Below, one piece after another: positions 9,689 to 55,056 of a stretch of 64,000 bases of DNA; position 1 is the first letter of the stretch, and each line of letters begins with the position of its first letter. The notes under the pieces are model-generated. The model saw only the letters and a list, made by a program, of their open reading frames with translations. It made no database searches and was not told the origin of the DNA. This DNA comes from Elusimicrobiota bacterium (GTDB lineage: Bacteria; Elusimicrobiota; Elusimicrobia; Elusimicrobiales; UBA9959): positions 64,001 to 128,000 of the forward strand of contig JBAXKK010000001.1 in the NCBI GenBank assembly GCA_037137395.1, in the 5' to 3' direction. The position numbers and the translations under genes were made by a program.

Positions 9689-9907
9689 TTATATAATCCT
9701 AACTATTTTGGCGGGGCTGCGGGCTCCTTTGACCAGCAGTATCCGCTTGCGGTCGGTATGGATCTCGGCGGCCAGCAACCCCAGGGCGGCGGCGTTGGCT
9801 CTGCCGCGTTCGGCCGGAGCCTTGATCCATATCTCAAAAGAGTCCGGCCCTTTTTTATTTATTTTATTTTCTTTCGCGTCAGGGTGGACTTTTAGTTTGT
9901 AGAACAT
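9689..9907 (-). CDS. DUF167/YggU-family protein
   Basis: KVHPDAK, APAERGRAN and GARSPAK. Confidence 0.85.
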   Translation of the reverse strand: MFYKLKVHPDAKENKINKKGPDSFEIWIKAPAERGRANAAALGLLAAEIHTDRKRILLVKGARSPAKIVRII

Positions 9908-9921
9908 AAAGGTTAAATGAT

Positions 9922-9994
9922 GCCATAGGCCTTAAGCCATAGGCCATAAGTTGCAAAGATCTCCTTAAAAAGCCTAAAGCCTAAAGCTTATGGC
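9922..9994. repeat. Heptamer-repeat element (GCCATAN ... AGCCTAA-GCTTATGGC type)
   Basis: GCCATAG GCCTTAA GCCATAG GCCATAA, spacer, AGCCTAA AGCCTAA AGCTTATGGC. Confidence 0.8.
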
Positions 9995-11568: not shown

Positions 11569-11725
11569 CCTCGCGGAATCATGTTGAAAACTATCACCTC
11601 TGTATTTTAGAAAATAAGGAGGCTGTTATGATATGGCCCTCTACGGCCGGAGCTTTCACTCAGGGATAAGGAAATTTTAGCCGCCTGCCAAAAGAGCGGA
11701 ATGCCGGCCGATTCCAAAAAAGACC

Positions 11726-13024
11726 TTACAGTGTAATGTCCAGCGCGGCGGCTGCCGACTGACCGGCCAGGCAGCCGGTGGAAAAAGCCTCCTGCAAATT
11801 ATAGCCGCCGGTAATCCCGTCAAGATCCAGCACCTCTCCGCAAAAATAAAGCCCGCGCACTATGCGCGACTCCATAGTCCTGGGGTGTATTTCAGCCAGA
11901 TTTACGCCCCCGCGCGTGACAGTCGCTTCCTGTATGGGGCGCGGCCTGGTTATGTGGATCCGGAAATCTCCGAACAGCTCCGCTATTTTTTTGCGCTCGG
12001 CGCCGGTTATTGAGGCGCACTGCCTGCCGCGGGCAATACCGCTCAGCCGCTCAAACACTGAGGCAAGAGAGTCCGGTAAAGCCGCTTTGAGATAAGTTGA
12101 AAACATTTTGGCGCCGTTATCGGCAAAATACTTCTGGGTAGCAGCGGCTAATTCGGCGGGCGTCCGCTCCGGCGCCAGATTCACGGATAGCTCCACCCTG
12201 TTTCCGCGCTCAAGCAGGGCGTCCACCGCGACCCCGCTCATGATAAGGAGTTTGGGGCCGGAAACGCCAAAATGCGTGAATAATAATTCGCCTTTTTCCG
12301 TTGCCGCCGTCCTGCCGTTGATTAAAACCGAAAGCGCTACGCCTTTAAGCGTCAGCCCCTGCAGATCTTTTATAAACGAATCATCGGATTCAAGGGCGGT
12401 AAGCCCCGGCCTTAGCGGGACGATGGTGTGCCCGCATTGCTTTGCCAGGGAGTAACCGTCCCCCGTGGAACCGGTTTTAGGATAGGACATCCCGCCGGCG
12501 GCGATAATTATTTTTTTGCCGCGGATAACTCCGCCGCCCGGGAGTTTTACGCCCTCTATTTGTGAGCCGTTGCGAATCAAAATGCCTGCGGCCTGCGAAC
12601 CGCAGGCGATACTGACTTTGCTGTCTTTCAGGTAGCCGATCAGCGCGGCCAAAACGCTGCGCGCTTTGTCATCTGAGGGGAAGATCTTTCCATCCGGATC
12701 CGCGCGGGTCGGCACTCCGCGCGAATTGAAAAAGGCTATCAGGTCTTCGTTTGAGAATACGCTCAGGGCCCTGTGCAGGAAGTTCCCATTTTTGCCGAAA
12801 GCCGCGATAAATTCTTTTAAGTCCGCGCTGTTGGTCAGGTTGCACCGGCCGCCGCCGGTAAGCAGCAGCTTCACTCCAAGGCCCGGATTTTTTTCAATAA
12901 GCGTGGTTTTGGCGCCCGACTCCCCCGCGCGGCCCGCCGCCATAATCCCGGCTGGCCCGCCCCCGATGACGAGTATGTCCGCGCTGTCGTGGTTCGCGTG
13001 ATAGTTTCCCATATCCATTTTCAT
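11726..13024 (-). CDS. HI0933/YhiN (BaiN-like) flavoprotein oxidoreductase
   Basis: GGGPAG, LTGGGRCNLTN, FTHFGVSGP and GEVLDLDGITGGYNLQ. Confidence 0.9.
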   Translation of the reverse strand: MKMDMGNYHANHDSADILVIGGGPAGIMAAGRAGESGAKTTLIEKNPGLGVKLLLTGGGRCNLTNSADLKEFIAAFGKNGNFLHRALSVFSNEDLIAFFNSRGVPTRADPDGKIFPSDDKARSVLAALIGYLKDSKVSIACGSQAAGILIRNGSQIEGVKLPGGGVIRGKKIIIAAGGMSYPKTGSTGDGYSLAKQCGHTIVPLRPGLTALESDDSFIKDLQGLTLKGVALSVLINGRTAATEKGELLFTHFGVSGPKLLIMSGVAVDALLERGNRVELSVNLAPERTPAELAAATQKYFADNGAKMFSTYLKAALPDSLASVFERLSGIARGRQCASITGAERKKIAELFGDFRIHITRPRPIQEATVTRGGVNLAEIHPRTMESRIVRGLYFCGEVLDLDGITGGYNLQEAFSTGCLAGQSAAAALDITL

Positions 13025-13080: not shown

Positions 13081-13426
13081 CCCTAATCCTCCGTTAAGTA
13101 TGCGGCCATATAGGAAACCAGATTTCACCTAATGGGTGAAATGGGCTTCACTTTCAGTTGTAATCTTCAGGTTTGCGGGGCTGTCGGGGGCCTGGAACGC
13201 GAAACCAGTGTCGGCCACACCGTGGCCGCACTTCCGGATCGGACCCAGTGTCGCAGGGCTCCACCCGCTCGGCGCGCTTATGCAAGCGCCGAACGAAAGT
13301 AGTGTCCGTAGCAAACCTCTGGTAGCCCAGTCCACTCCGGTACGGTTTCGCTAACCCAGATCCCCCGGCGCCCGCTCCGATATTGCATCTGTCTTGATTT
13401 TACATTTACTTAGCGGAGGATTTGGG
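13081..13426. mobile_element. MITE-like non-autonomous element (346 bp) carrying structured repeat copy A
   Basis: Terminal inverted repeats CCCTAATCCTCCGTTAAGTA (13081-13100) and TACTTAGCGGAGGATTTGGG (13407-13426), 18/20 match; no transposase. Confidence 0.6.
13171..13378 (+). repeat. Structured non-coding repeat, copy A (candidate ncRNA or ssDNA element)
   Basis: Homologous to 37833-38068 (minus) and 54779-54930; nested closing stems with covariation between copies. Confidence 0.75.
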
Positions 13427-37507: not shown

Positions 37508-37713
37508 GCTATCCCAAGAAAACAATAAGGCGACGGCGGGTTGGCAGGGGTCCTGCCAGCCATGGGACCCATCGGGCCTGCGGCCGGCCCGGCGACTTCG
37601 CGCCGGTTCCTCCTCGGCCCGATTCAACCCATGTCTGTCACCCCCTTAGCCCCCGCCGTACTTAAAATCGTCAAGGGAGACGTGTTTTTGTAATTATGGA
37701 TTTGTGGGATAGC
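37508..37713. mobile_element. Second MITE-like element with a long internal hairpin
   Basis: Ends GCTATCCCAAGAAAACAATAA / TTATGGATTTGTGGGATAGC (9 bp perfect plus a degenerate extension); internal nested stems at 37533-37659. Confidence 0.5.
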
Positions 37714-37832: not shown

Positions 37833-38068
37833 CAGCGCGGATGACGGGGAACCGGATAGCGAAACCGTACCGGAGTGGACTGGGCTACCAGAGGTTTGCT
37901 ACGGACACTGTTTTCGCTCGGCGCTTGCGTAAGCGCGCCGAGCGAGTGGAGCCTTGCGACACTGGGCCCGATCCGGAAGTGTGCCCCGACGCATGCAGTG
38001 TCCGATAGCCAAGCAAACTGCGGCAAAGTCCACCCTGATTTCGCGTTCCGGTTTTCCGGCAGCCTCTA
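37833..38068 (-). repeat. Structured non-coding repeat, copy B
   Basis: The reverse complement is near-identical to 13229-13353 over about 125 nt and shares the outer stems. Confidence 0.8.
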
Positions 38069-38243
38069 CGCCAAATTATTGACTGACTAAACTTGGATAA
38101 CCAAGAACCGCAAGGCCTACTCCGGCCTAGGTCTTTTAAGTATGAATATTTACCCTTAAGACCCTTATTGAAATTTGCAAAATAAAATAACATATAAGTA
38201 GCGGCTTTTGAAAATGCCGCCGGGTATAATCAGGAGGAAATGC

Positions 38244-54623: not shown

Positions 54624-54778
54624 AGTAAATCTGCTCCCCGCTATGTATAGGATTTAATTATTATAACATAAAACCGGAATGGGCCCGGTTACCGGTAAAC
54701 GTCGCGCCCGGGCCCCGGTTTTCCTGCCCCGGTAGCGTCAAGACTTGTGTGTGTGTTGACAATGTAGGGTTTGCGGGT

Positions 54779-54930
54779 CCTGTCAGGGGCCCGGAACGCG
54801 GAACCGGCGTCGCGCACTTCCGTTGCGGGCCCAGTGTCGCAAAAGCTCCACCCAGCCTCCGCGCTCCGTATGCTCGGCTTCCGGACGGTTCCGCTTATCC
54901 GGTTCCCCTGCCACCCACTCCACCGGCATC
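54779..54930 (+). repeat. Structured non-coding repeat, copy C (shorter, diverged)
   Basis: Shares GTTTGCGGG..TGTC.GGGG.C.GGAACGCG.AACC, GCACTTCCG, CCCAGTGTCGCA, GCTCCACCC and the 3' closing stems with copies A and B. Confidence 0.7.
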
Positions 54931-55056
54931 GCCAGAGGTTTATCCTTTCAAATCATACTTTGCCTGCCCGCGTTCCGTTGACAGGGGCAGGCTCATATCG
55001 CTATATTATCAGTGCGCTTGCTATTTGGCGAAATTGAAAATGCCGGGTAAAAAGCG

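Follow-up and report, generated by a model that had tools for sequence, protein, structure and literature searches.

A dispersed, gene-less hairpin repeat in one family of uncultured Elusimicrobiota, carried in part at insertion-sequence ends and predicted to fold as single-stranded DNA

RESULTS

The hairpin copies and their surroundings

The window analyzed here is a 64,000-nt stretch of an Elusimicrobiota bacterium genome (GCA_037137395.1, contig JBAXKK010000001.1, positions 64,001 to 128,000). It holds three copies (A, B, and C) of a hairpin repeat that we call Y, and their positions and parts are collected in Table 1. An earlier note had drawn attention to these three copies, and a check in the sequence shows that they are present, lie between genes, and contain the stem pairs quoted for them.

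Copy A is enclosed by a miniature element derived from an IS1380-type insertion sequence (IS). This envelope is a MITE: it has IS terminal repeats, it is missing from the same site in the nearest relative (genome G001), which is empty there, and it is bordered by a short target duplication, by eye about 3 nt. As copy A has module M3 without module M1, it is likely to be a recombinant. Copy C, as read in the sequence, belongs to the right-hand end of an IS256 element, in which the last transposase codons, the hairpin cassette, and the terminal repeat follow one another; the corresponding place in G001 is occupied by an F2 hairpin with another envelope. Y itself was also considered as a MITE and rejected, having no terminal repeats or target duplication of its own and having ragged junctions.

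Table 1. Hairpins, envelopes, and modules in the window
Feature	Position	Strand	Remarks
IS1380-derived miniature element enclosing copy A	13081..13426	+	346 nt; limits by eye
Terminal repeats of this miniature element	13081-13097 and 13410-13426		17 nt; the same repeat closes the IS1380 transposase loci L025, L088, and L100
Short palindrome characteristic of IS1380 left ends	13123..13141		Also in L024, L088, and L100; limits by eye
Copy A, Y-hairpin of family F1	13170..13379	Folded strand minus	Carries M2 and M3, no M1
Copy A, arm 2	13207..13232	-	Stem of 11 pairs with one bulged A; the loop reads GGT on the folded strand; limits by eye
Copy A, module M2	13239..13264	-	Approximate limits
Copy A, arm 1 apex	13274..13287	-	Stem, TT bulge, GC-loop-GC mini-hairpin, loop ATAA; by eye
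Copy A, module M3	13293..13334	-	Complement of M1
F2 sister hairpin	37542..37648	-	Paired in inverted orientation with copy B, the TCCA-side ends facing inward
Copy B, F1	37834..38077	Folded strand plus	M1, M2, and M3 present; arm-2 tip absent
Right terminal repeat of an IS256-family element	54731..54756	-	On the GGTTC side of copy C
Copy C, F1	54768..54922	Folded strand minus	Carries M2
Remnant, last codons of an IS256 transposase gene	54927..54958	-	On the TCCA side of copy C; aligned with L115, L151, L386, and L390

A modular repeat family in six genera

The element had been described as having three copies. A genome search places A, B, and C among 43 copies in the host genome (G000), to which the sister hairpin beside copy B has to be added. 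The 40 copies that could be aligned at near-full length measure 135 to 254 nt, the differences resulting from optional modules in a core of about 145 nt (family F1). Module M2 is present in 13 of these 40 copies, modules M1 and M3, which are complements of each other, in five each, and a fourth module in two. The sequence CCCAGTGTCGC..GCTCCAC, formerly taken for a conserved core, is in fact module M2 and hence optional. Two sister families, F2 (21 copies genome-wide in the host) and F3 (8 copies), have the outer stem in common with F1 and differ in their interiors, and the three families substitute for one another at identical sites, F1 and F2 doing so at IS256 and chromosomal sites.

Several individual loci bear on how these hairpins are built. 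An M3-like module lies inside an F3 hairpin (G000:C6:22957-23075) and also inside an unrelated hairpin (G000:C21 near 1571-2149), implying that modules move between folds; G001 has an F1 copy at the latter site. A minimal form with both element ends and no interior (L278:1-176) is paired inward with a full copy. One copy, C18_9712, is preceded by a duplicated gene end (G000:C18 near 9712-9940 and 11588-11851), and in G001 Y stands at the original site. Three related small open reading frames, which we take to be ORF6N-like, adjoin F1, F2, or F3 hairpins in the host genome (C93:7858-8382, C12:43061-43576, and C8:47899-48405).

The relatives were searched with a covariance model built from 23 copies. 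Of 60 host-family genomes, 47 contain the repeat, namely every genome of six genera and none of the other seven genera, so that the further copies which the earlier note had suggested looking for exist both here and in relatives. Five genomes of one genus have 47 to 100 copies each. Outside the host family, a single genome in a phylum sample of 143 gave two weak matches. Metagenome contigs (run X1) pile up 7- to 25-fold over both arms of copy A and break at 13378, as expected of a sharp-ended repeat, and some of them skip its module M3.

Known families were also searched. Rfam gave no match at the gathering score in the window, none around copy A at E values up to 10, and none over the element in nine loci; the earlier note, too, had not recognized a known family. 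The seven plasmid records recovered at E 0.5 are at chance level, phage sequences gave no match, and neither did viral contigs searched with two sequence patterns. Among 546 open reading frames beside 202 copies, clustered with the GIY-YIG locus described below outside the set, only orthologues and transposases recur. Y is a gene-less dispersed repeat, present in dozens of copies per genome within one family of uncultured bacteria.

Covariation and the folded strand

The structure was examined in an alignment of 99 copies from 92 loci, which were fitted to a model of the same fold and include kin that are not independent. The fold is a long interrupted stem leading to a three-way junction with two arms, comprising 50 pairs. 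Pairing is found in 93.9% of cells, compared with 73.8% in shuffles and 34 to 47% with slid partners, and both sides have changed at 47 of the 50 pairs; as the pairs were placed by hand after the columns had been seen, these figures lean favorable and overstate the case, with a margin that is nevertheless wide. The compensatory changes noticed among the three copies are real, and covariation is also seen in this larger alignment. Taken one by one, copies A (z -4.6) and B (z -4.0) fold better than shuffled sequences (0/200 shuffles), and C does not in the orientation originally proposed (z -1.4; 17/200).

That orientation, with A as the folded strand, finds no support in the larger set. In all but one of 40 copies (39), the folding energy is lower for the strand opposite A, though its z-score is better in only 26 to 28 of the 40. 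When the pairs are read on this strand, G-T occupies 166 cells and A-C 62 over the 99 copies, G-T outnumbering A-C at 25 pairs and being outnumbered at 12 (p 0.047), although one pair is reversed, with A-C in 14. Tandem GA/GA motifs occur at three places on the same strand (89, 60, and 45 of the 99 copies). At the tip of arm 1, a stem with a TT bulge is capped by a GC-loop-GC apex whose loop is GTAA, GTA, ATA, GCA, or ATAA (125/179 parsed), GTAA being the commonest (48 of 125). Among 40 copies, 25 have the motif GCGN(N)AGC on the folded strand and eight on the other strand, and by eye F2 and F3 likewise have C-GNA-G loops on the folded strand. Certain unpaired positions are kept across six genera: the TT bulge, a bulged A (94/99), and the most frequent of the GA/GA motifs.

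Mini-hairpins of the types GCGNAGC and GCGNNAGC are described, in an excerpt of PMC13037366, as far more stable in DNA than in RNA and as occurring at the priming sites of phage G4 and of RSF1010 ssiA. Taken together, the imbalance between G-T and A-C, the tandem G-A motifs, and the DNA mini-hairpin apex argue for single-stranded DNA rather than RNA, and we infer that Y folds as single-stranded DNA on the strand opposite A. The RNA reading of the earlier note fares less well, as the loops GTA, GCA, and ATA beside GTAA suit DNA mini-hairpins better than GNRA loops; its view of a mobile, covarying element folded as a single strand, and not a riboswitch, holds.

Hairpin cassettes at insertion-sequence ends

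To describe IS carriage in the relatives, families were assigned as IS1380 from PF13701 and as IS256 from PF00872, besides two rve groups. Transposase-bearing ISs have an F1, F2, or F3 hairpin in five end positions, of which two are left ends of IS1380 (L088, L024, and L014; L021), one is the right end of IS256 (L115 and L151), and two are right ends of the rve type (L079 and L027; L243). At L243, the cassette has intruded into the last part of the coding sequence. One rve group is presumably IS1202-like. It has a TGT end, which supports that label (an excerpt of 10.1101/2022.12.17.520857), and NCBIfam scores below the cut-off. The cassette is absent in close relatives of these ISs, namely in six of 12 IS256 elements and in L100, L116, L240, and L245, indicating that these ISs do not need it. 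A composite miniature element at L014:1400-2100 is made up of two IS1380 left ends that are inverted relative to each other, the first holding F1 or F2 and the second the other of the two.

As judged with a small set of tips, a known IS tip lies within 220 nt of 13 of 41 copies in the host genome (background, 4 of 1,500 windows) and of none of 53 copies in G009, G017, and 20 further loci. Carriage by ISs thus covers only a share of the copies, most of which are found away from recognizable IS ends.

One contig (L334:1-1771) has a 141-nt terminal overlap and contains a whole rve-type IS with its right and left ends abutted and Y after the stop codon. This closed form is either a circle or a tandem dimer, and the contig was binned with another phylum. 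In six relatives within this IS group (L336, L340, L343, L344, L356, and L358) there is no Y; instead, DnaA-box-like words, judged by eye, follow the transposase stop in the same slot. Most of the 38 rve-type IS ends inspected have neither Y nor such a word. In L356, the DnaA-box-like word lies within a hairpin having a mini-hairpin cap, and similar words are also seen at IS1380 right ends in L025, L088, and L100. Such words may represent a further priming module at IS ends.

The mobile-element partners suggested earlier were looked for as well. RAYT genes were considered as partners, as for REP/REPIN, and rejected: none of 33 RAYT loci is flanked by a copy within 1.2 kb, and RAYT genes are found in 12 of 13 genera, Y in six. 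Four RAYT-like genes in the host genome (L001-L004) are flanked by short tandem-type repeats, one such repeat truncating copy G000:C32:2757. No IS110 was found. The sole reverse transcriptase, at G000:C52:11795-14836 (L009), is accompanied by a small accessory open reading frame, template and variable repeats, and a target gene, and looks like part of a diversity-generating retroelement. The Y2 transposase of IS91/ISCR had no match in the genome, the control genomes being equally silent.

Fixed polarity, inverted pairs, and strand bias

At all five IS end positions, Y is turned with its TCCA end, which forms the 5' foot of the folded strand, toward the transposase (p about 0.06). Among 167 hairpins, 17 have a flank matching a transposase, and the match is on the TCCA side in 17/17. 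Eight of these 17 were not counted as IS end positions: three are more than 600 nt away, four are short IS256-like fragments, and the one at L172 probably belongs to a neighboring IS. Neighboring hairpins less than 400 nt apart, at loci chosen around known matches, form 53 pairs, of which 49 are inverted with the TCCA ends inward, none is inverted outward, and four are direct.

Single copies were compared with the base skew of their strands. In four relatives, the folded strand is the C-rich strand in 36 of 49 cases (p 0.0014), regardless of gene direction; in the host genome, the count is 24 of 40 (not significant). As genes favor the G-rich strand (349 of 527 in the host genome, with a noisy skew taken from 10-kb pieces), the C-rich strand was taken to be the leading-strand template. 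Of the genes that end at a copy, 61 read the A strand and 29 the opposite strand (p 0.001). For single copies between co-oriented genes, the fold is on the sense strand in 23 of 52, so there is no sense bias.

A GIY-YIG gene bracketed by Y

At locus L404, a gene for an 88-aa GIY-YIG protein (L404:4792-5058) follows a tRNA-Gln gene and is bracketed by two inward-facing Y copies. Across 31 loci of this gene, Y lies upstream within 120 nt in 16, with the TCCA end toward the gene in 14 of them, and downstream in four. In some genomes, the start codon of this single-copy gene lies within the Y flank. GIY-YIG matches were recovered in 63 of 80 genomes, covering all six genera that hold Y, and were strong in two of the seven genera that lack it; G008 and G193, with one or two Y copies, have no strong match. 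The nearest solved relatives of the protein are the UPF0213 proteins 1ywl and 1zg2.

DISCUSSION

The comparisons made here with known systems draw on excerpts of the papers cited. Y was compared with the single-strand origins and initiation signals ssoA/U/W, RSF1010 ssiA and ssiB, the phage G4 origin, and the A site of the ABC primosome (PMC5703833, PMC13037366, PMC6127211, and PMC8567376). Like these, it is an irregular hairpin of about 150 to 250 nt with one working strand, which for Y is a predicted fold, and with mini-hairpin caps; RSF1010 ssiA and ssiB also form an inverted pair, as Y doublets do. Unlike them, it is chromosomal, reaches 40 to 100 copies, sits in IS ends, has no adjacent rep gene, and lacks a sequence match in plasmid or phage collections. 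The likeness to REP, BIME, and REPIN repeats lies in an intergenic, dispersed, and modular nature, inverted doublets of fixed orientation (49/53), and the lack of a target duplication (PMC6006769 and PMC3733652). REPs, however, are described as single hairpins of 21 to 65 nt with a GTAG (GTGG) or CGTC foot (PMC6006769 and PMC3733652), whereas Y is a three-way junction of 135 to 254 nt, and no foot is conserved in the 99-copy alignment. The envelopes of A and C resemble MITEs derived from IS1380 and IS256, whereas Y occurs in unrelated IS families and also free-standing. In its scattering, Y resembles REP/REPIN and in its build a single-strand origin; it belongs neither to the REPs nor to the MITEs, the tRNA mimics, or the Rfam families.

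Several accounts of such an element can be weighed against the fold. One in which it acts as RNA, be it as transcript stabilizer, terminator, or small RNA, and possibly spreads via an RNA step, would fit the strong covariation, the many copies near stop codons, the excess of A-strand reading in genes ending at a copy, and the commonest loop, as GTAA is also a GNRA loop. We nevertheless regard it as improbable: the strand more often transcribed is the worse folder, three-base GNA loops and the ATA and ATAA variants are unlike GNRA, single copies show no sense bias, Rfam has no match, and there is no fitting reverse transcriptase. A terminator was rejected in its own right, as by eye there is no U-run at either element end. 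Nor do we give much credence to a functionless fold, whose copies would ride passively in miniature transposons, have their pairing kept by template switching and gene conversion, and owe their orientation to hairpins being lost when they stand on the lagging-strand template. Inverted loops and exchanged modules do occur, F1 and F2 replace one another at the same IS256 and chromosomal sites, and the replication-strand bias is consistent with purging, but the conservation of unpaired positions across six genera speaks against it, and purging leaves the 49 inward versus 0 outward inverted pairs unexplained. The last nine bases of many copies are those of the two tRNA-Gly genes of the genome, so that the A strand might be a tRNA-Gly mimic processed at its CCA end. 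This is very improbable, since two acceptor pairs are C-A or A-C on the CCA strand (in 8 and 12 of 99 copies) and G-T on the other, the end is not conserved in genus g4, and ARAGORN called no tRNA in the window.

More weight goes to an account in which the small GIY-YIG nuclease of the host would have Y as its target, just as SsnA has NTS repeats, with the single strand cut near the TCCA foot and repair joining new DNA to it; on present evidence we think this somewhat unlikely. SsnA is described as cutting solely single-stranded DNA, immediately 5' of its hairpin (PMC11893778). A cut of the Ssn type would explain joints on the TCCA side, and a single-strand cut there followed by repair would give inward pairs and ragged junctions; Y junctions are ragged, with no target duplication. 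In the NTS/SRM and Ssn system, hairpin repeats bracket a small single-domain GIY-YIG gene (PMC11893778), an arrangement to which that of L404 may correspond, and the gene is found in all genera that hold Y. Unlike in the Ssn system, the nuclease here is closest to UPF0213 structures and the flanking is at one inherited locus, and Y is five to nine times as long as the 28-nt NTS (PMC11893778). The gene being syntenic and inherited, the 16 loci with an upstream Y are not independent. The gap upstream of the gene, as seen at L404, L457-L486, and G000:C11:30290-30526, holds short-period repeats or nothing in other genomes, and in the host genome no Y flanks the gene. Gaps elsewhere, for example behind sdhB and behind fba, likewise recur in several genera. 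Four genomes that are 78 to 92% complete (G185, G196, G199, and G188) have 10 to 47 Y copies and no GIY-YIG match, and a nuclease target explains the polarity in ISs poorly.

The reading that we tentatively prefer, at rather less than an even chance, is that Y may be a priming signal comparable to the single-strand origins of plasmids and spreading as a passenger. A strand exposed during transposition, uptake, or fork stalling would fold, its shape would be read by host primase, primosome, or RNA polymerase, and the missing DNA strand would be primed at Y by these host proteins. Extension of a primer on the folded strand would proceed in the direction of the TCCA end and thereby enter the IS or approach the partner copy, in the manner of facing PCR primers, and IS-end carriage would account for part of the spread. 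Plasmid single-strand origins are described as folded and about 160 nt long, with activity confined to one strand (PMC5703833), and among known priming sites on single-stranded DNA is a DnaA-box hairpin (PMC6127211). The priming reading is suggested by the strand-specific fold of DNA type, the size, and the mini-hairpins matching single-strand origins of plasmids and phages, by the fixed polarity at IS ends and in inverted pairs, and by the closed Y-bearing IS of L334 together with the DnaA-box-like words replacing Y in the same slot. Circle formation is described for IS256 and IS1202 elements (10.1101/2023.06.07.543989); in the excerpt of that paper listing circle-forming families, IS1380 is not among them. 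The host has a PriA gene.

Several points stand against priming. Close IS relatives do without the cassette, most copies have no known IS tip nearby, most rve-type IS ends inspected show neither Y nor a DnaA-box-like word, and IS1380 is missing from the circle-forming families. Five IS positions are few, and polarity is irrelevant on a closed circle. Fixed-orientation doublets are also usual for REPs. The bias toward the C-rich strand is not toward the strand exposed by a moving fork, as this strand is not the lagging template, and no credible match was found in plasmids, phages, or viral contigs. A priming signal and a nuclease target can both hold. A wider version, in which unrelated ISs would carry an exchangeable tip cassette (Y, a sister fold, or a DnaA-box hairpin) that starts inward second-strand synthesis, and in which inward pairs would be tiny self-priming units spreading gene-free, is in our judgment unlikely. 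In a literature search made up mostly of openly accessible main texts, we found no description of the repeat, of an IS-borne priming signal, or of GIY-YIG proteins with REP and YhbQ.

How the second strand is primed in copy-out transposons is, to our knowledge, an open question. What spreads REP-like repeats that lack a RAYT is likewise open, as stated for CGTC repeats in an excerpt of PMC3733652. Should Y show neither priming nor nuclease activity, it would be one more lineage-specific REP-like repeat. The family offers natural pairs of near-identical IS256 and IS1380 elements with and without the hairpin, three folds that can replace one another, a single strict polarity, and a candidate nuclease, which make both questions testable with oligonucleotides and purified proteins.
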